Of a stretch of 64,000 nt of DNA, positions 39,160 to 51,881 are shown one piece after another (position 1 is the first letter of the stretch; every line of letters begins with the position of its first letter). The notes beneath the pieces are model-generated. The model did no database searches. It saw only the letters and a list, made by a program, of their open reading frames with translations, and was not told the DNA's origin. The stretch spans positions 608,001-672,000 of the forward strand of contig CAVZDU010000001.1 of NCBI GenBank assembly GCA_963774265.1, in the 5' to 3' direction. Position numbers and translations under genes: made by a program. This stretch comes from an uncultured Chloroflexia bacterium. GTDB taxonomy: Bacteria; Chloroflexota; Anaerolineae; CG2-30-64-16.

Positions 39160-41179
<2,020 letters not shown>

Positions 41180-41422
41180 TAGACCTGACTCCCTGCCCCA
41201 CCCCTCCTCCATCACCGGCCTGTATTCGGTCCACAAGCACCAGTGTCATGAAGAGTGAAATGATCTGGCAAGCGTCTCGTTAGCGAGCTCGCCGATCAGC
41301 CTGAACGACTACCCTAAGCGTTGGGCTGGCCACGCAGCTACACCAACATGACGCATGTCATAGCCAAGCCCGTGGAGCAGTAGTATAAATATGCAGTAAT
41401 CTCTATATAGAGGGCTCCGCAT

Positions 41423-41773
41423 ATGGATACATATCACAACCAGGCCAAATTGCTGAAGCTGCTGGCGCATCCCATGCGCCTGCAAATTCTTAGACAGGTG
41501 CGCCGCTCGGACGAGTGCGTCTGTCACCTGTCAGCCGTCCTCGACAAGCCCCAACCCTACGTTTCCCAACAGCTCGCCATCCTGCGCGAAGCCGGTCTGA
41601 TCGTCGACCACAGAGACGGCACCAACGTTTTCTACGGGCTGGACGGCGGGAGCTGCGCGCAAATGCTTAACGAAGTCCTCAGCGCACTGTTCGTCGATGA
41701 TGGGACTGACCTGTCACCCGTACACGAGCGGGTCGCGGGCTGCTGTTGTCCCAAGTGCCTCGCTGAGTCTTGA
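41423..41773 (+). CDS. arsR: ArsR/SmtB-family regulator
   Basis: LAHPMRLQIL, ECVCHL, SQQLAILREAGLI; C-terminal CCCPKC. Confidence 0.9.
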   Translation: MDTYHNQAKLLKLLAHPMRLQILRQVRRSDECVCHLSAVLDKPQPYVSQQLAILREAGLIVDHRDGTNVFYGLDGGSCAQMLNEVLSALFVDDGTDLSPVHERVAGCCCPKCLAES

Positions 41774-41836
41774 TCGCCTGGCATCCGTATGATGTCAGCT
41801 CTCACCATTCTGTTTATACCCAAGGAGATTTCACCC

Positions 41837-42097
41837 ATGGCCCTGCACATCAAAATCCTCGGTGGCGGCTGCGCCAACTGCGACCGGCTCGCGCAGAACA
41901 CCAAACAGGCCGTCGCCCAACTGGGCGTTGAGGCCACCTTCGAGAAGAGCGGCGACTACGCGGAATACGAGCGCTACGGACTGCTCGCTACGCCCGGGCT
42001 CGTCGCGAACGACCGGCTTCTCAGTGGCGGCCGCGTGCCCTCGCCGGCGCAAATCGTCACGCTCCTGGCCAACGTCCTAGCCGCTGAAACGGAATAG
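41837..42097 (+). CDS. small thioredoxin-fold redox protein (MTH895-like)
   Basis: IKILGGGCANC..TPGL..GRVPS. Confidence 0.88.
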   Translation: MALHIKILGGGCANCDRLAQNTKQAVAQLGVEATFEKSGDYAEYERYGLLATPGLVANDRLLSGGRVPSPAQIVTLLANVLAAETE

Positions 42098-42133: not shown

Positions 42134-43282
42134 ATGTCGCACTCCGCTGAAGCCACCATTGCCCCTGTCGCACCAAAACGACTCTCGACGCTGGATCGTT
42201 TCCTGACCCTGTGGATTTTCCTCGCAATGGCCGTCGGCGTCGCCATCGGCTACCTGATTCCCGGCGTGGAAGCCTTCATCAATCGCTTCCAGGTCGGCTC
42301 CACCAACATCCCGATCGCCATCGGTCTGATCCTGATGATGTACCCGCCCTTCGCCAAGGTGAAGTATGAGCGGCTGCCCGAGGTCTTTCGCAACGTCAAG
42401 GTGCTGGGCATCTCGCTGCTGCAGAACTGGATCATCGGCCCGATCCTTATGTTCGTGTTGGCCATTGTTTTCCTGCGCAACTTCCCTGAATACATGATCG
42501 GCCTCATCCTGATCGGCCTGGCCCGCTGCATCGCGATGGTCATCGTCTGGAATGAGCTGGCCAAGGGTGACACCGAATACGCGGCCGGGCTCGTGGCGTT
42601 CAACAGCGTGTTCCAGGTGCTCTTCTACAGCGTCTATGCGTACATCTTTATCACCGTGCTGCCGCAAGCGCTCGGCCTGGAGAGCGCAGTGGTCAAGATC
42701 AGCATCGGCGAACTGGCCAAGACCGTCTTTATCTACCTGGGAATCCCCATGATCGCCGGTTTCGCCTCGCGCTTCTTCCTGCTGCGCGTGAAGGGACGGG
42801 AATGGTACGAGAAGAAGTTCATTCCGCGCATCAGCCCACTCACGCTGATCGCCCTGCTGTTCACGATCCTGGTGATGTTCAGCCTGAAGGGCAATCTGAT
42901 CGTGCAGCTCCCGTTGGATGTGGTGCGTATCGCGATCCCGTTGGTGATCTACTTCGTGATCATGTTCCTGGTCAGCTTCTGGATCGGCCACCGTGCGGGC
43001 GCGGACTACCGCATGACCACCACCATGGCCTTCACAGCGGCCAGCAACAACTTTGAACTTGCGATTGCTGTGGCAGTCGCCGTATTCGGCATCGGATCGG
43101 GCGTGGCGTTCGCTGCGGTCATCGGTCCGCTGATCGAGGTGCCGGTGATGATCGGGCTGGTCAACGTCGCGTTCGCGCTCCAGCGGCGGTGGTTCAAGCA
43201 TGAGCTGGTCACTGCACCCACGGGTCTGGTCGCTGCGGCTGAAGAGGCCTGCCTGCCACCGGTCAAGGCTAAGGGCTCTTGA
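42134..43282 (+). CDS. acr3: ACR3-family arsenite efflux permease
   Basis: [49 protein letters not shown]. Confidence 0.95.
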
Positions 43283-43326: not shown

Positions 43327-43614
43327 GAGCGAGGTTGAGCATGCCGAGCACCGTGGGCCTGGGCCAGGCCATCCGAGAGGCGGCAGCCGGCCAGTATGTC
43401 ACTGCCCCCTGGCGCTGGACTTCGCGTCGGTGAGCAACGTGGCGCCCCACACACCCGACATGGCCGCCGAGATGCTGTGGGGCGGTGCGGCCTGGGCAGC
43501 CAGCTTCCCGGATCGTGCTGTGTCCTTGATCGGGTTCGCTGACGGATGGAAATCGAGTACGCTCGCCGTGGCGGAGCTCCCGAGGCTTCAATCCCGACCT
43601 GCGAGGAGTGCATC

Positions 43615-44160
43615 ATGCTGATTGAGCACTATGATGTGGAAATCTTCACGCCGCCCTGCGAGCCGGGCGCAGAACGTTTCTCAGCGCGCGCCCGATTGCT
43701 GATCGACATCTCGGAGGCGCTACCCTATCTCAATGCCACGTTGCGTGGGGCAGTGTACACCCAAGCGGCCGCCGCGCTGACCTGGAAGAAGGGCGGCCAC
43801 AACATCGCCTTCCACGCCTACGAGATCGCCACCAGCAACGTGGAAGACCGCGACGCGGCCATCGCCGAGCTCGAGGGCCTGGTGGACCTGGTCAATCGCA
43901 CGTGGGAGCGCCGCGCCGAGATCACGCCCGACCACGCCCTGCACCAGAGACCCACGGCTATGGCACTGTACAAGCTGCTGCCGGGCACCAATTGCCGGCT
44001 ATGCGGCCAGCCCTCTTGCTGGAACTTTGGCCTGAAGTTAGCCGCGGCTCAGGTCGAGCTGGCCACGTGCCCGCCGCTGGGTGAGCCGGCCTACGCCGAA
44101 CGGCTGGCCGCGTTGGTGGCGCTGCTCGTGCCAATGCCGGCCATCGGGCCCCGGGACTAA
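43615..44160 (+). CDS. (Fe-S)-binding protein with C-terminal CxxCxxxxC..CP domain
   Basis: LPGTNCRLCGQPSC..CPPL; N-terminal PC..ALPYLNA. Confidence 0.82.
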   Translation: MLIEHYDVEIFTPPCEPGAERFSARARLLIDISEALPYLNATLRGAVYTQAAAALTWKKGGHNIAFHAYEIATSNVEDRDAAIAELEGLVDLVNRTWERRAEITPDHALHQRPTAMALYKLLPGTNCRLCGQPSCWNFGLKLAAAQVELATCPPLGEPAYAERLAALVALLVPMPAIGPRD

Positions 44161-44200
44161 CATCACAGGTCGAGAAAGGCTCACGACAGAGGTAAGCATC

Positions 44201-45137
44201 ATGCCAGCACATGAAGACAGCACCATTGGTCGGCGTTTTCTCATCTCTATCGGCGTCACCATCGCCATTCTCATCGTCGAAATCATCGGCGGCTACTGGA
44301 CGGGCAGCCTGGCGTTGCTCTCAGATGCGGCCCACGTCTTCATGGACGTCTTCGCGCTGGTTCTGAGCTACCTCGCACTACGGCTCTCCGCGTTGCCCGC
44401 CGACGACCGCCACACCTACGGCTTCCACCGCCTGGAAGTGCTTGGCCGCGCTCGTCAACGGTATCACACTCGGTGCGATCGCCATCGGCATCTTCTCCGA
44501 ATCCTGGCAGCGCTGGCAAAACCCGCAGCCGGTAAAAAGCCTTGAGATGCTGGTCATCGCCGCCATCGGCCTGATCTGCAATCTGATCGTGATCTTCGTA
44601 CTCGGCGGCCACGGCCACCATCGCGAGGCGCACGACCATGAACACGAGCGCGAGGATCTGAACGTCCGCAGCGCGTTCCTGCATGTTGTCGGCGACGCGG
44701 TCTCTTCGGTGGGCGTCATCTTGGCAGCAGGCATCATCTGGACCACCGGCTGGCAATGGGTTGACCCCCTGGTCAGCGTGCTCATCGGGGTTCTGATCCT
44801 GATCAGTTCCTGGCGCGTGCTCAGAGGCTCCCTGCACATCCTGGTTGAGGGGGTCCCCGAAGGGCTGTCACTGGCGAAAATCAGCCAAAGCATGGCCGAG
44901 GCGCCCGGCGTGCAGGACGTGCACGATCTGCACGTCTGGAATCTGTGCTCAGGGCATATTGCCCTGAGCGCCCACGTCGTCGTAAGTGATCAAAGCCTGG
45001 GCCAGGCGCAGACCTTGCTGGACGATCTCATAAGCCACCTGAAGGCCGGCTTTGGCATTGAGCACACCACCATCCAGTTCGAATGCGCCAGTTGCGGGCA
45101 TGGTCGCATGGTCTGCGGCAACGGCAATCATTCGTAA
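44201..45137 (+). CDS. czcD: cation diffusion facilitator (CzcD/ZitB-like); frameshift near 44440
   Basis: SLALLSDAAH, TYGFHRLE, His-rich loop, NVRSAFLHVVGD, HDLHVW, HTTIQ. Confidence 0.88.
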
Positions 45138-45199
45138 CCGGGAGGATTCATAGTATGACCGGGCTCATAGCACGACTTGCATATCCGAAGGAGATCGCA

Positions 45200-45651
45200 G
45201 TGAGCAGCGAATTTCTTGAAACCACAGTTGATAAATTCATCTTCCGCGTGAAGGTCGGCTACCTCTACAGCGAGGCCGGCGTCTGGGTAGCCTATGAGTC
45301 GGCGCAGGGCACGGCCCGCGTCGGCCTAACCGACTTTCGCCAGCAGGCCAGCGGCGATGTCGCGTTCGTGGAGCTGCCCGCAGTCGGCGCCCAAGCTGGA
45401 GGCCGGCGACGATCTGGCCAACATCGAGACCATCAAGGTCGACCTGGCCGTGCCTGCGCCGCTCAGCGGCGAGGTTGTGGCCGTCAACGAGGCGTTGGGC
45501 GACGCACCGCGAGCTGATCAACCAGGAGCCGTACGGCGCGGGCTGGTTGGTCGAGCTGAAGCCGGAACACTGGCCGGTCGAGGGCTTGCTGGATGCGCCC
45601 GCGTACCTGGCCGTGATGCAGGCGCAAGCCGAAGCGGAGGCGGCCAAATGA
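45200..45651 (+). CDS. stand-alone GcvH-like lipoyl-carrier protein; frameshifts near 45390 and 45510
   Basis: VWV..ARVGLTDF.Q..GDVAFVELP..IETIK(lipoyl Lys)..APLSGEVVAVNEAL..LINQEPYGAGWL. Confidence 0.85.
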
Positions 45652-46063
45652 GCGAGCGCGTGATCATTGTGCCGTGCAGCGGCATCGGCAAGACGTATGG
45701 CACGGTGACGCGCGAGGCGGCCTATCTGGTGACCGAGGAGCTGCGGCCAGAGACAACCACCATCGTGCCGCTCTCGCTGCTGGTGCTGGGCGACGAAGAG
45801 GCGCGGGCGGCCGTGCAGGACGCCCGGGTGATCACCATGGATGGCTGCAAGCTGGCCTGCGCCACGCTCAACGTGCGCCAGGCGGGCGGCGACGGTAGCC
45901 AAGGAGTTCACCGTGCTGGACTTCTTCCGGCGCAACAAAGCCCTGAAGCCCCAGGGCATCAGCCGAGCTGAACGACGGCGGCCAAGCCCTGGCCCGCGCG
46001 CTGGCGGACGAAGTCGCCCAAACAGCCGATGAATTGATCGCGGGAGGCGTTGAACATGCCTAA
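45648..46063 (+). CDS. DGC-domain (putative zinc-binding) protein 1; frameshifted
   Basis: VPCSG..ITMDGCKLACA; ATGA overlap with the gcvH-like stop. Confidence 0.8.
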
Positions 46064-46802
46064 TCTACCGCAACGCAAAGTCGGCATCGTGGCCTGCTCG
46101 GGCGAGGAGTTGCCGGCGGGCACCGTCACCCGCCTGGCCGCGCTCAAGGTGCTGGAGGAGCTGCGGCCCAGCGAGACCGTCACCATCTGCCTGCCGCTCT
46201 TCCTGGCCGGCGGCGAAGGGGATCGCGCCTTCGCCAAGTTCTACCCCACCATCGCCGTGGACGGCTGCGAGAAGCGCTGCGCGGCGCGCGCCACCGAGCT
46301 GTACAGCAACAAGCCGGCGGCCAGCATCGTGGTGGACGACATCCTGGCGCAGCACAACCTGCCGGCGCCACAGGGGCTGCGCCGGCTGTCGCCGGAGAGC
46401 CAGCCCGTCGTGGACGCCCTGGCCGACGCGATCGCCGCCGAAGTCGATCATCTGATGGCCGTGCGCTGGAGCCGGACCGAGGGCGCGATCCTGGAGGCGG
46501 CGCCCGCGGCCCAGGAAGCTGTCAGCACCTCGGCCTGCGCCTGCGGCTCGGGCATCCCGGTGACCACTGTGCAAGTGGCCGGCCGCGCGGTGCAAATCAT
46601 GGCCCTGGAGCCGATCCTGGAGCTGGCCTACAACCAGGGCTTGCGCGCCGATGGCGCCCTGCCCAGCCGGTACCGCCAGATCCTGCAGACCGTGCAGGTC
46701 TACAACACCGTGCCGGCCGGCGAGGAAGACCAGTACGCGCAGGCGCTTGATCTGGCCTGGCACGCCTACTGCGAGCAGCGCGAGGCGCAGAATCATGGCT
46801 AA
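46056..46802 (+). CDS. DGC-domain protein 2 with C-terminal CACGSG-containing extension
   Basis: VACSG..TICLP..AVDGCEKRCA; overlaps both neighbours. Confidence 0.82.
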   Translation: MPNLPQRKVGIVACSGEELPAGTVTRLAALKVLEELRPSETVTICLPLFLAGGEGDRAFAKFYPTIAVDGCEKRCAARATELYSNKPAASIVVDDILAQHNLPAPQGLRRLSPESQPVVDALADAIAAEVDHLMAVRWSRTEGAILEAAPAAQEAVSTSACACGSGIPVTTVQVAGRAVQIMALEPILELAYNQGLRADGALPSRYRQILQTVQVYNTVPAGEEDQYAQALDLAWHAYCEQREAQNHG

Positions 46803-47254
46803 GACCGCAACCTACACCACCGAAGTCACCTGGCGCGGGCGATCACTGGGGCCATATCGTGATGGGCAACGGCCCGCAGATGGCCTTTTCCGCGCCGCCC
46901 GACGCCTACGGCCAGGCCGGCGTGTTGACCCCCGAGGATGCCTTCGTCGCGGCGGCCAACACCTGCGTCATGATGATGTTCCTCTGGGCCTGCGAGCGGT
47001 TCAAGATCGACCTGGTGGACTACCGCTGCCGCACCGAGGGCACCAAGAAGATCGAGCTGGATCGCACCGAGATCTTCACCCACCTGCGTTTCTGGCCCGA
47101 GATCACCGTGCGGGCCGATGCCGACGGGGACGCGGCCAGCACCGAGAAGCGCGTGCGCAAGGCGCTGGCCTCGGCGCAGAAGTACAGCCTGGTGGCCAAC
47201 TCGGTCAAGAGCGAGATCAGCATCGAACCACAGATCACGGTGCAGGAAAAGTAG
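46795..47254 (+). CDS. OsmC/Ohr-like protein; frameshift near 46845
   Basis: YTTEVTW, FSAPP..G..TPEDAFVAAANTC, KYSLVANSVKS. Confidence 0.82.
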
Positions 47255-47258
47255 TATC

Positions 47259-47405
47259 ATGTTGAGCATCAAAGTATTGGGGCCCGGTTGCGCGAACTGT
47301 TTCATTATGGAAGGCCTCGCGACGGCTGCCGTGCAAGTCCTGACAGACCAGCTTGAGCAATTCGCTCTGGGAGGAAGACCGTGTCCAAGGTATCAGTGGT
47401 GCTAG
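47259..47405 (+). pseudogene. truncated second thioredoxin-fold protein
   Basis: MLSIKVLGPGCANC resembles the 41837 gene but lacks the TPGL..GRVP half. Confidence 0.6.
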
Positions 47406-47554
47406 ATGACCAGGAACAGCAGGAGCTGCAGATGATCCTGACCGATGGGGATGGTGTGGCTGCGCTCCGCTACCTGAAGGAAGTGCTCTGGACCCAGGTG
47501 CAAGCGGTGCGCCGCAAAGAGTTGCGCAGCCACCTGGAAGCAGGCCGGTCGTAG
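47381..47554 (+). CDS. 57-aa hypothetical protein (below the ORF-track cutoff)
   Basis: SD ggagga, GTG start, helical VSVVLDDQEQQELQMILTDGD..ALRYLKE, TAG 47552-47554. Confidence 0.6.
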   Translation: MSKVSVVLDDQEQQELQMILTDGDGVAALRYLKEVLWTQVQAVRRKELRSHLEAGRS

Positions 47555-47790: not shown

Positions 47791-48369
47791 ATGTCCCTGA
47801 CCACCGAGCATCTTGTGGGTGCGATCAGCTTGATTCGCTCCCTGCCTTGCCTGGCCGATCCCGGTAAGATCATCGTCATCGGCGAAACTGACGCGCCTCT
47901 GGACGGTGTGCTGCCGCTCCTGAACGCGATCCTGCCCAACGTCGTCAGCTACCATCCGTTCAGCGGCGTGATGACCCTGCGCCGGCGGCCCGGGCTAATC
48001 ACGCTCTACCCGGACAAGGTGATGATCACGCAGGTGGCGGACGTCGAAGAGGGACTGGCCCTGCTGGCGGCCGTGCGCGATCTGCTCAACCGTACCTGGG
48101 CCCGTCGGGATGAGATCCAACCCAGGCCGCAAGGACGCCGTGTGCCGCGACCGCTGGACGTTTATGAGCTGCTGCCGCGCACCAATTGCCGGGCGTGCGG
48201 CGAGGCGACCTGCATGGCCTTCGCGTTCGGCCTGCTGGAGGGCCGCCATCAGCCGGAGGAGTGCCCATCCTTGGCCGATCCGGCCTACATCGCGCAGCGC
48301 CGGGCGCTGGCCGATATGCTGTCCGATGCGGGGGACAGCGCAGCCGGGCCAAACCTAAACGCGCTGTGA
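47791..48369 (+). CDS. (Fe-S)-binding protein, paralog of 43615
   Basis: LPCLADP..VLPLLNA..LPRTNCRACGEATCMAFA..CPSL. Confidence 0.82.
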   Translation: MSLTTEHLVGAISLIRSLPCLADPGKIIVIGETDAPLDGVLPLLNAILPNVVSYHPFSGVMTLRRRPGLITLYPDKVMITQVADVEEGLALLAAVRDLLNRTWARRDEIQPRPQGRRVPRPLDVYELLPRTNCRACGEATCMAFAFGLLEGRHQPEECPSLADPAYIAQRRALADMLSDAGDSAAGPNLNAL

Positions 48370-49484: not shown

Positions 49485-49915
49485 ATGGCTAAGAAGCGCG
49501 TGCTGTTTTTATGCACCGGCAATTCCTGCTCGTTCCCAGATGGCTGAGGCCATCGTCAATGTCCGGCTGGGCGAATCATGGGAAGCCTATAGTGCGGGCA
49601 CCCAGCCGGCCGGGTATGTTCACCCGCTGGCCGTGCGCGTCTTGCGTGAGATCGGTATTCGAGCATGAAGGACGCTCCAAGCGTGCGGACGAATTCCGGG
49701 ACATGCCGTTCGATCTGGTCGTGACCGTCTGCGACGATGCCGCCGAGAACTGCCCGGTGTGGCTGGGAAGGGGGCGGCGGGTGCACCTCGGCTTTCCTGA
49801 TCCCGCAAAGGCGACGGGGAGTGAGGAAGAGGTGCTGGTCGTCTTCCGCCAGGTGCGCGACGATATTGCGGTGCGGATGAACGAGCTGCTTTCGCGTGAG
49901 AATCTGGGGACTTGA
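49485..49915 (+). CDS. arsC: arsenate reductase, thioredoxin-coupled LMW-PTP type; frameshifted
   Basis: [37 protein letters not shown]. Confidence 0.88.
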
Positions 49916-49951
49916 CAAATCACGACTTATATCGTATATATACGATATAAG
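49912..49951 (+). promoter_or_regulatory. sigma70 promoter overlapped by a 26-bp perfect palindrome (ArsR-type operator)
   Basis: TTGACA at 49912-49917; cttatatcgtatatatacgatataag at 49926-49951. Confidence 0.78.
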
Positions 49952-49952
49952 G

Positions 49953-50366
49953 ATGGTGGTGAGATGGAGGTCATCGCATTGCAGGGACCGGCGGAGCGCA
50001 ACCGACGAAGCGCGCCTGGTGCAGATGCTGAAGGCGCTGGGTAATCCGGTTCGTTTTCGCATCATGCAGACGCTGGCCGAGCGCCAGGTGTGCATCACGC
50101 AGGAGATTGTCGAAACGACGCCGCTCGCACAGTCCACGGTCAGTCAGCATCTAAAGGTGCTGCGCGAGGCCGGGCTGATCGAGGGCGAGTTCGAAGGACC
50201 CGCGACCTGCTACTGCCTGAGCGAGACGGGCGTGCGCTGGCTGAAGGAACAGATCGAGAGCTGGCTGCCCGGATGCTGTCAGCCAGGCTCGCGGTTTGAG
50301 CCGGTTGAGATCGAGCCGGCGCGTGGCGGAGGTGACCAGGACGCCGCACGTGACTGCTGTGACTGA
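49953..50366 (+). CDS. arsR: second ArsR/SmtB-family regulator (start uncertain)
   Basis: KALGNPVRFRI, QSTVSQHLKVLREAGLI, C-terminal GCC and DCCD. Confidence 0.88.
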   Translation: MVVRWRSSHCRDRRSATDEARLVQMLKALGNPVRFRIMQTLAERQVCITQEIVETTPLAQSTVSQHLKVLREAGLIEGEFEGPATCYCLSETGVRWLKEQIESWLPGCCQPGSRFEPVEIEPARGGGDQDAARDCCD

Positions 50367-50440: not shown

Positions 50441-51881
50441 ATGAGCATGACTCAGGCATCGGCCGAGTATTTCGAGCGGGTGGCGGGCGAGTGGGACAGC
50501 CTGCGGACCGGTTATTTTGGGGAGGCCGTGCGCGACGCGGCGATCGCACGGGCGTACCTGCGGCCAGAGATGGTCGTGGCGGACGTCGGTTCGGGCACGG
50601 GGTTCATGGCTGCGGGTCTCGCGCCGCTGGTTGCGAAAGTATATGCGGTCGACGGCTCGGCCGCCATGCTGGAGGTCGGCCGGCAGAATCTGGGCGGCTT
50701 CGGCAACGTCGAGCAACGGCTGGCCGACGGCGCGCGCGTTGCCGTTCGACGACGCGAGTCTCGACGCGGTCTTCGCGAACATGTATCTGCATCACTGCCC
50801 TGACCCCCAGGCGGCCATCGTTGAAATGGTGCGTGTGCTGAAACCCGGCGGCCGGCTGGTGATCACGGACCTGGATCAGCACGAGCATGCCTGGATGCGC
50901 GAGGAGATGGCCGACTCTGGCTAGGCTTCGAGCGCGGCAGCGTGAAGGACTGGCTGCGGGCGGCGGGCCTGGTGAACGTGATCGTCGATCGGCACCGGCG
51001 AGTCCTGCAGCTCGACCTCGCAGAGCGATCCCGCAGCGGACGCGGCGGCCGACATCAGCATCTTCGTGGCGACGGGCAGCCGCCGGGTGAGCGGCGCGAC
51101 GCGACGCCGTGCAGTCCAGCTACGGTGCGCTGGCGGTCAACGGCGGCTGCTGCGGCTCGCGGCTGCGGTCGCAGAGCAGTTGCTGCTCGCCGTCATCGAA
51201 TGCGATGGAGCTGGTCGAGGCCGGACACGGCCGGATGTGGTCCTGTGGGATACGGGATACACTGCCGAGCAGATCGCCCTGGTGCCTGCGGAAGCTGCGA
51301 ACCTGTCTTTGGGCTGCGGGAACCCGACCGCGATGGCTTCACTGCGGCCGGGCGAGACGGTCCTGGACATCGGCAGCGGCGCGGGGATCGACGCCTTCTA
51401 TCGCCGCCCGGCGTGTGGGCGAGCAGGGCCGGGTGATCGGGCTGGACATGACGCCGTCCATGATCGAGCGCGCGCGGCGATCCGCGGAAGCAGCCGGGCT
51501 GACGCAGGTGGACTTCCGGTTGGGACAGGCGGAAGCGATGCCGGTGGAAGACGGTATCGTGGACGTGATCCTGTCGAACTGCGTTATCAACCTGGTGGAG
51601 GACAAGGGCCGGGTCTTCGAAGAAGCCTATCGGGTGTTGAAGCCGGGCGGCCGGTTGAGCATCAGTGACATGGTGACCGCCGGGCCGCTGCCCATGAGCT
51701 TGCGGAGCGATCCACAGATGTGGGCAGGGTGCATCAACGGTGCGCTGCCCGGAGCGCGAGTATCTGGACCTGGTGCGGCAGGCGGGCTTCGTTGACGTTG
51801 TAGGGCAAGCGAAGCTTGAGTGGGGGTGAGCTGGCGGGCGTGGAGGTCTACAGCCTGGCCCTGTCAGCCAGAAAAGCATAA
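50441..51881 (+). CDS. arsM: arsenite methyltransferase with an extra N-terminal SAM-MTase domain; several frameshifts
   Basis: N domain DVGSGTG, LHH.PDP, LKPGG; C domain [30 protein letters not shown]. Confidence 0.82.

Follow-up and report, generated by a model that had tools for sequence, protein, structure and literature searches.

A conserved cassette of GcvH-like, DGC, DGC and OsmC-like genes, most likely an accessory module of ArsR-controlled arsenic operons

The cassette and its genomic setting

The stretch analysed here, called the window, comprises 64,000 nucleotides from the genome of an uncultured Chloroflexia bacterium (GCA_963774265.1, contig CAVZDU010000001.1, positions 608,001 to 672,000; C1:608001-672000 in our numbering), and it carries a cassette of four genes that encode a GcvH-like lipoyl-carrier paralogue (GcvHL), two DGC-domain proteins (DGC1 and DGC2) and a protein of the OsmC fold (OsmC-like). 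Three-frame translation of positions 45080-47420, combined with Pfam and NCBIfam scans, gave matches to GCV_H, DGC, DGC, OsmC and Thioredoxin_3 in succession on the plus strand, as an earlier sequence-only reading of the locus had proposed (Table 1). That reading also described four overlapping, coupled genes. The overlaps are real: the GcvHL stop at 45651 overlaps the DGC1 start at 45648, the DGC1 stop at 46060 overlaps the DGC2 start at 46050 or 46056, and the DGC2 stop at 46802 overlaps the OsmC-like start at 46795, with stop/start overlaps also present in an intact relative locus (L019). It had, however, missed the frameshifts in three of the four. The cassette ends a run of genes, arsR-trx-acr3-FeS-CDF-GcvHL-DGC1-DGC2-OsmC, that all point in the same direction with short gaps between them, and downstream of it lie FeS2, a CMP-kinase-like gene, a pI258-type arsC, a second arsR and arsM. 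These surroundings are an arsenic island, with an ArsR/SmtB repressor (HTH_5) and an arsenite efflux gene (ACR3 equivalog) in one co-directional cluster.

Most likely the four genes make up the conserved core of an accessory module that belongs to arsenic operons under ArsR control, both in Chloroflexota and in certain other uncultured bacteria, and we are confident in regarding the cassette as a conserved module of ars operons. Conservation was followed in a genome set, consisting of the best 80 of 346 matches among species-representative genomes, and in a metagenome set of 80 more divergent loci. The best 80 genome matches all carry Chloroflexota names and include the isolate Ornatilinea apprima P3M-1 (L114). 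The metagenome loci were found with an alignment led by a protein from a candidate division TA06 bacterium, which falls in one divergent DGC2 cluster; a metagenome scan with the TA06 protein alone gave no match. GcvHL, DGC1, DGC2 and OsmC occur in this order on one strand at 67 of the 70 genome-set loci with enough flanking DNA on both sides, and in this order at all 39 such loci of the metagenome set, an outcome that answers the earlier call for gene-order conservation elsewhere. Among genome-set loci with enough upstream DNA, GcvHL and DGC1 were each found in 73 of 74, the single miss being L105, where DGC1 lies just beyond the distance limit, and among those with enough downstream DNA OsmC was found in 74 of 75 (L082 lacks it). 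The order GcvHL-DGC1-DGC2-OsmC-Trx, in which Trx is a small thioredoxin, was present in 14 of 15 loci of relatives, with no GcvH match in L032. DGC2 proteins are numerous, with 5956 relatives at E <= 0.001 among 8000 candidates scored, and patchy in distribution, occurring in 14 of 41 related genomes (own genome counted) and in 8 of 401 genomes of an even phylum sample.

Enrichment beside arsR and other ars genes, also set earlier as a check, was clear in the longer loci. An ArsR-family match was present in 42 of the 44 genome-set loci with at least 5 kb on each side, no more than 3 kb from the cassette in 38 of them, and the same 44 loci held a small thioredoxin downstream in 37 cases and a PF04060 protein in 14. 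Every metagenome locus with at least 3 kb on each side had ArsR (12/12), and 9 of the 12 had Acr3, ArsC, ArsA or ArsD. As a control, both ArsR queries were run with an unchanged threshold over the entire own genome (5.5 Mb), where they matched 2 and 4 places. The 83 distinct cassette-adjacent ArsR proteins include 77 with a CxC in helix 3 and 63 with at least two cysteines in the C-terminal tail, sites that we take to resemble those with which R773 ArsR and Acidithiobacillus ArsR bind As(III); ArsR1, at the head of the run in the window, has ECVCHL in helix 3 and CCCPKC at its C-terminus.

An unbiased survey of neighbours, in which all open reading frames (ORFs) from the 80 genome loci were clustered and then assigned with Pfam, returned Trx (68 loci), ArsR (64), CMD/AhpD-like proteins (23), PF04060 (19), radical SAM/SPASM (15), Acr3 (14), ArsC (14), TauE (11), ArsD (8), ArsA (7), PIG-L (7) and FmdE (7). 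The small thioredoxins have a CxxC in 60 of 60 sequences, and the AhpD-like CMD proteins recur in 12 of the 80 metagenome loci. An Lpd-like pyridine-nucleotide disulfide oxidoreductase was found in 7 of the 80 genome loci, always directly upstream of GcvHL, and in the same position in 7 of the 80 metagenome loci. Loci with this flavoprotein disulfide reductase include L089 (162-1586), L151, L160, L176, L187, L195, L207 and L214.

The window itself is a poor exemplar of the cassette because of its assembly quality. DGC2 is the sole cassette gene that is intact as an ORF; GcvHL spans three frames, DGC1 three and OsmC-like two, and DNA alignment to the intact relatives L019 and L021 places five single-base insertions within 2.1 kb, near 45391-45395 and 45506-45510 in GcvHL, at 45891-45893 and 45961-45966 in DGC1, and at 46852 in OsmC-like. 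Contigs from independent public runs are one base shorter at 45395, 45506, 45891-45893 and 45961-45964, a comparison that covers the first four insertion sites. We consider the five insertions to be probably assembly errors, because gyrB (39160-41090) is broken in the same way, lying in three frames with two +1 shifts, because other genes of the window (CDF, arsM and arsC) are split likewise, and because the genome, with 5.5 Mb in 10 contigs, has a completeness of 84%. Together the split genes and this completeness in so few contigs point to uncorrected indel errors throughout the assembly. The exact stretch was absent from the public runs searched, where the best share of words was 0.15, so assembly error is the probable and not the proven origin of the insertions. 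Contigs of relatives were present in two RNA libraries, a presence that is evidence of neither transcription nor induction.

The alternative is that the insertions are real and that the cassette is, in its own genome, a decaying pseudogene cluster, which would make the window uninformative about a working system. This seems to us quite improbable. Decay would account for five frame-breaking insertions in 2.1 kb, for their absence from relatives and public contigs and for the truncated thioredoxin downstream; but the same kind of split affects gyrB, an essential gene, and several further genes of the window, the assembly is just 84% complete despite its 10 contigs, and the frame pieces contain no internal stop codons or other damage, with a ratio of nonsynonymous to synonymous substitution rates (dN/dS) of 0.10-0.19 against L019, frameshifted genes included. 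The downstream thioredoxin is a remnant, as had been noted earlier: tblastn matches residues 1-31 of its 34, CxxC included, after which it diverges from L019 and L021. Proteins were analysed through intact orthologues, so as not to join frame pieces.

The four core proteins

GcvHL belongs to the GCV_H fold and family. An intact orthologue scores 104.5 bits with Pfam GCV_H (26.9, 29.9 and 24.4 bits for the three pieces in the window), and the GcvHL profile matches 14 solved GcvH chains, the best at 122 bits being Thermus GcvH. The lipoyl lysine is retained, as the sequence-only reading had recognized, with IETIK in the window and the E, T and K of the lipoyl-lysine motif E-T-x-K in 127 of 127 distinct GcvHL sequences. 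GcvHL is distinct from true GcvH: it falls below the NCBIfam GcvH equivalog cut-offs (TIGR00527, 103.9 vs 115.85; NF002270, 107.2 vs 117), it is not with gcvT or gcvP, and it does not group with the housekeeping copy. It is the fourth GcvH-family paralogue in its own genome, where the housekeeping GcvH (156 bits) adjoins GDC-P and GCV_T on contig C2. The phylogeny suggested earlier as a check set the cassette GcvHL proteins apart: a branch with support 84/83 separates them from the housekeeping GcvH of the same genomes, to which they are sister.

The window was correctly described as having no gcvP, gcvT, lpd or lipoate ligase; no GCV_T, GDC-P or BPL_LplA_LipB match lies within C1:608001-672000, and none of the own-genome profile matches to LipA falls inside it. 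Elsewhere the genome encodes LipA, two BPL_LplA_LipB proteins and three Lpd-like proteins, which makes lipoylation and reduction of GcvHL feasible. The nearest Lpd-like match, at C1:693899, is outside the window; it is the immediate neighbour of lipA (371.8 bits), the two genes occupying C1:693899-696329, ~39 kb from the cassette on its downstream side. In two metagenome loci (L148 5208-5654 and L159 4681-5118) the DNA upstream of the cassette contains another GcvH-like gene, a more distant one with 28-29% identity.

Both DGC proteins carry the invariant D-G-C and score above the Pfam DGC cut-off of 27 bits (42.1 and 51.5 bits for DGC1, 57.1 and 56.5 bits for DGC2). DGC1 has C10 in 134 of 136 sequences and C67 and C71 in all 136, and at the second canonical cysteine position it has Ser (115), Ala (20) or Pro (1), never Cys. 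DGC2 has four cysteines in its N-terminal DGC domain and an invariant CxC in its C-terminal domain, and these six are present in at least 154 of 155 sequences. The AlphaFold2 model of DGC2, with a mean predicted local distance difference test score (pLDDT) of 81.7, has a flavodoxin-like alpha/beta N-terminal domain with a Cys at the end of strand 1. A search of PDB sequences with the DGC1 profile gave nothing at E <= 10. DGC1 and DGC2 are the only two DGC genes in their own genome, and among 14 model genomes the domain was found in Methanosarcina acetivorans only.

Co-folding lends weak support to a predicted DGC1-DGC2 complex. The pair scored 0.54 against 0.00 for the best of 3 controls, with runs that agree in at least 90% of contacts and a partner pLDDT of 86. 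Among the solved complexes of the calibration set 58 of 80 reach the mark applied, as do 2 of 110 mismatches, and passing scores of 0.60 or less belong to just 7 of those 80 complexes and to both of the passing mismatches, such that passes in this range are, by the calibration, more often wrong than right unless the pairing is likely beforehand. The 50% representative library contains proteins with two DGC domains, with DGC2 joined to Thioredoxin_3, and with DGC2 joined to OsmC (P0130, P0155, P0162, P0252, P0258, P0267 and P0191; the OsmC domain scores 26 bits, under the cut-off). An ORF of 421/433 amino acids in genome G011 (L022) was considered as a fusion and rejected, being a read-through of a frameshifted DGC1.

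OsmC-like belongs to the OsmC fold family: the Pfam OsmC model scores the window copy at 46.3 bits and the orthologue at 41.2 bits, and the PDB relatives are 2onf and 2d7v. Proteins of the OsmC/Ohr type have a peroxidatic Cys on the central helix and a Glu ten residues before it. The cassette protein has C57 on the central helix with E47 ten residues before, and C57, C78, S131, H17 and E47 are each present in 129 of 129 OsmC-like sequences. Judging from these residues, however, it is not a standard two-Cys OsmC/Ohr, since the resolving Cys is replaced by Ser and Cys78 is new and invariant. The sequence-only reading overlooked the missing canonical second cysteine.

A possible lipoyl-dithiol relay and competing readings

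The best overall explanation, to which we give a probability of about one half, is that the cassette is an ars-operon module that acts as an ArsR-switched lipoyl-dithiol relay or arsenic-thiol handling module. We favor a thiol relay because the fixed set consists of a lipoyl carrier, two Cys-cluster proteins, a two-Cys OsmC fold and a CxxC mini-thioredoxin, because Lpd-like and AhpD-like genes are sometimes added, and because ArsR heads the unit. GcvHL would be lipoylated by the ordinary lipoate machinery of the cell, and its lipoyl arm would be reduced by a dihydrolipoamide dehydrogenase, presumably the one whose gene immediately precedes GcvHL in some loci and lies at another site in the present genome. 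The dihydrolipoyl arm could then serve the cysteine sites of the DGC1/DGC2 pair (3 + 6 conserved Cys) and of OsmC-like (Cys57/Cys78), with the small ArsE-type thioredoxin, and the AhpD-like protein where present, as further thiol-disulfide shuttles. The net effect might be that arsenic-reactive thiols are kept reduced, or that As(III) or methyl-As(III) is bound and passed toward Acr3. Worded narrowly as an arsenite-induced lipoyl-dithiol relay, the proposal is tentative and slightly less probable than in its broader form. The gene content, order, coupling, conservation, residue invariance and ars association of the cassette are matters of observation, while lipoylation, electron flow, arsenic binding and the DGC role are what we infer from the sequences. 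The relay or decoy proposed by the sequence-only reading has thus gained conservation, linkage to ars genes and apparent novelty, and its mechanism is as conjectural as before.

Literature searches found no paper on the four-gene cassette and none that links a GcvH-like protein to ars operons, which bears out the novelty that had been suspected. Lipoyl-dependent Ohr/OsmC is said to have been described by Cussiol and colleagues in 2010, and a peroxide chain of Lpd, lipoylated H protein and OsmC was reportedly found in the Trichomonas vaginalis hydrogenosome by Nyvltova and colleagues in 2016. Like that chain, the cassette encodes a GcvH-family carrier with an OsmC-fold thiol protein, apart from glycine cleavage genes, and has an Lpd-like reductase directly upstream in 14 of 160 loci; it differs in having two invariant DGC proteins between carrier and OsmC, an OsmC-like protein that has no resolving Cys and has the new invariant Cys78 and His17, and control of ArsR type among ars neighbours. 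Mycobacterium tuberculosis has a relay that runs from Lpd through the lipoyl proteins DlaT/SucB and AhpD to AhpC. The resemblance is that a lipoyl protein would reduce a CxxC protein of the AhpD/CMD family, whose genes follow the cassette in 23/80 and 12/80 loci, but the cassette includes no AhpC, its carrier is a free H-protein paralogue and not an E2 subunit, and the window has no CMD gene beside it. Canonical ars operons (ArsR, Acr3/ArsB, ArsC, ArsD/ArsA, ArsM, ArsP, ArsE-type thioredoxin) are closer in setting, as the cassette lies inside such operons and shares with them a head ArsR with CxC and C-terminal Cys sites and a small thioredoxin of the ArsE family, but the four core proteins are outside every named Ars family. 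In our view the cassette is best classed as a candidate thiol relay that is based on a lipoyl protein, has been recruited into ars operons and includes two partners of no known function. Two precedents bear on its parts. A study of Hyphomicrobium proposes the product of a GcvH-like gene beside osmC as an electron donor to OsmC (bioRxiv 10.64898/2026.10.01.755906). The other is the ArsR-ArsP-ArsE-DGC operon of Pseudodesulfovibrio mercurii ND132, with ArsR5 as its repressor, which was upregulated by arsenic in RNA-seq and whose DGC protein is described as of "unknown function"; it shares with our loci a PF08859 DGC protein and an ArsE-type thioredoxin under ArsR, and differs in having a single DGC gene, an ArsP permease and no GcvH-like or OsmC-like gene (bioRxiv 10.1101/2022.10.17.512643).

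Several observations weigh against the ArsR-switched relay. Three of the four genes are out of frame here, and this copy is dead if the insertions are real. The canonical resolving-Cys column of OsmC-like is Ser in 129 of 129 sequences and Cys in 2onf and 2d7v, and with this loss known OsmC chemistry is not simply transferable to the protein. Acr3 or ArsC was found in just 17 of the 44 long genome loci. ArsR sites of the CxC type occur in Cd/Pb sensors too, so arsenic is not proven as the inducer. The link to Lpd is limited to the 14 of 160 loci mentioned above, and the window contains neither lipoate ligase nor lipoate synthase. Structural comparison gave the DGC proteins no informative relative: Foldseek of the DGC2 model against the PDB returned nothing at E <= 0.001, VIA-align returned generic flavodoxin-like matches, the best an uncharacterised protein (3pu6_A, Z 8.7), and for the DGC2 C-terminal domain, modelled by itself (pLDDT 78), the highest score was Z 5.5. 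The joined proteins of the representative library may be frameshift read-through, as in L022.

The same parts could serve a plain lipoyl-dependent peroxide defence of the Lpd/H-protein/OsmC type, co-regulated with ars genes because arsenite provokes oxidative stress and with the DGC proteins as accessories. The Hyphomicrobium gene pair, taken in that preprint as a peroxidase with its electron donor and discussed there with a citation of the Trichomonas OsmC/H/L system, is a precedent for such a function, and the Lpd-like and AhpD-like genes of some loci and the invariant Glu47 and Cys57 of OsmC-like are consistent with it. We nevertheless think it unlikely, given that Ser has replaced the resolving Cys throughout while Cys78 and His17 are invariant instead, that the adjacent regulator in nearly all long loci is of ArsR type and not an oxidative-stress regulator, and that two invariant DGC genes between carrier and OsmC would be superfluous for a simple donor-peroxidase pair. 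Many of the cassette carriers are, moreover, presumably anaerobes. The decoy idea of the sequence-only reading, in which the dihydrolipoyl arm and the Cys clusters act as a non-catalytic trap or chaperone that binds As(III) or methyl-As(III), shields housekeeping lipoyl enzymes and hands the metalloid to Acr3, draws on the cysteine counts. S3 sites are the usual As(III) ligands, and DGC1 has exactly three Cys, the fourth canonical position being Ser, Ala or Pro in 136 of 136 sequences; OsmC-like has a two-Cys pair, DGC genes outside the cassette are found together with thioredoxins of the ArsE type and with transporters of the ArsP or SBF type, and Acr3 is adjacent in many loci. Stoichiometric trapping would be costly, however, the thioredoxin, AhpD-like protein and Lpd point to redox turnover over mere binding, and the four DGC cysteines could equally hold Zn or an Fe-S cluster, all of which makes a trap doubtful, to much the same degree as a peroxide defence.

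The folds also invite comparison with arsenate reductases, in that DGC1 might work like an ArsC of the low-molecular-weight (LMW) phosphatase type, with a three-Cys cascade recycled by dihydrolipoyl-GcvHL or thioredoxin, on arsenate or pentavalent organoarsenicals. The flavodoxin-like alpha/beta DGC model with a Cys at the end of strand 1, the three invariant Cys of DGC1, and the many cassette loci that lack ArsC within the available stretch could be read in this way, as could structural matches to 2l17 (Z 6.7, root-mean-square deviation (rmsd) 3.1, 101 aligned) and 1y1l (Z 6.3, rmsd 2.9, 98 aligned). But values of Z 6.3-6.7 are within the noise range of the tool and stand amid dozens of unrelated flavodoxin-like folds, neither DGC protein matches an LMWPc/ArsC family or has the CX5R phosphate loop (DGC1 has CSGIGKT and DGC2 CSGEE), and the window already has a pI258-type ArsC. 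This is the least probable of the functions considered here, and we regard it as very unlikely. A more specific version of arsenic handling, in which As(III) or methyl-As(III) would be captured by a dihydrolipoyl arm dedicated to this task and handed on to Acr3 through the Cys clusters of a DGC1/DGC2 heterocomplex and of the two-Cys OsmC-fold protein, is a long shot comparable to the trap; if true, no lipoyl-based metalloid chaperone and no function of the DGC domain would have been described before it, and a cofactor that arsenite poisons would have been recruited against arsenite.

Arsenic toxicity is tied to dihydrolipoyl groups, and lipoyl carriers are a classical target of arsenite. That such a carrier is fixed in arsenic operons, accompanied by two members of a domain family for which no function is known, suggests that widespread bacteria of sediment and wastewater have a branch of arsenic defence that is so far unstudied. 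If the lipoyl-dithiol relay is borne out, it would place the DGC domain (PF08859) in a functional context for the first time and would assign a testable role to an OsmC variant incapable of the known two-Cys mechanism. Ornatilinea apprima P3M-1, a carrier available in culture, opens the question to direct testing.

Other genes and features of the island

The remaining genes of the island are listed with the cassette in Table 1. The CDF gene sits between FeS1 and GcvHL, a position at which it was not seen in the related loci examined. Only the C-terminal half of the pI258-type ArsC is in frame (TIGR02691, 59.4 bits, model positions 70-128), and the second ArsR matches NF033788 at 71.5 bits. Another methyltransferase gene, likewise split by a frameshift, is present at 50441-50924.

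Table 1. Features of the cassette and the surrounding arsenic island, in window coordinates.
Feature	Position	Strand	Evidence
ArsR1, ArsR-family repressor at head of co-directional run	41423-41773	+	Pfam HTH_5 51 bits
MTH895/ArsE-family small thioredoxin-like protein, CxxC	41789-42097	+	NCBIfam TIGR00412.2 72.3 bits vs cut-off 62
ACR3 arsenite efflux transporter	42134-43282	+	NCBIfam TIGR00832 461.6 bits vs cut-off 282.8
FeS1, ~200 aa, C-terminal PF04060 "putative Fe-S cluster" domain	43546-44160	+	Pfam FeS 31.1 bits
CDF cation efflux protein, frameshift near 44440	44189-45137	+	Pfam Cation_efflux and ZT_dimer; two ORFs in different frames
GcvHL, GcvH-like lipoyl-carrier paralogue, start codon uncertain	45155-45651	+	Pfam GCV_H on all three pieces
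DGC1, 137-aa DGC-domain protein	45648-46060	+	Pfam DGC 42.1 bits
DGC2, intact 248-aa two-domain protein	46056-46802	+	Pfam DGC 57.1 bits
OsmC-like, OsmC-fold protein	46795-47254	+	Pfam OsmC 46.3 bits
Second MTH895/ArsE-type thioredoxin, remnant	47259-47360	+	Weak Thioredoxin_3 and TIGR00412 matches
FeS2, second PF04060 Fe-S-domain protein	47791-48369	+	Pfam FeS 47.6 bits
pI258-type ArsC (only C-terminal half in frame) and second ArsR	49511-50366	+	NCBIfam scores in text
ArsM arsenite methyltransferase, frameshift-split	51066-51795	+	NF008823 67 and 184.9 bits; two overlapping ORFs in different frames

A promoter scan of the region found no sigma-70-like promoter, and terminator-like sites numbered 5 against 3.8 expected, none of them useful. 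An imperfect inverted repeat of 24 nt (71% complementary), set in AT-rich sequence at 41383-41430, spans the arsR1 start and is a candidate operator. Proteins of ~200 amino acids with the PF04060 domain sit between DGC2 and OsmC in two metagenome loci (L139 7698-8186 and L143 862-1374). The ars islands of relatives also contain a second DGC module, composed of a small thioredoxin, a 131-aa DGC protein (78 bits) and a transporter of the SBF/BASS family, found at L019 224-2003 and in L061, L116, L140 and L179, an arrangement that brings to mind the ArsP-ArsE-DGC operon of P. mercurii ND132.

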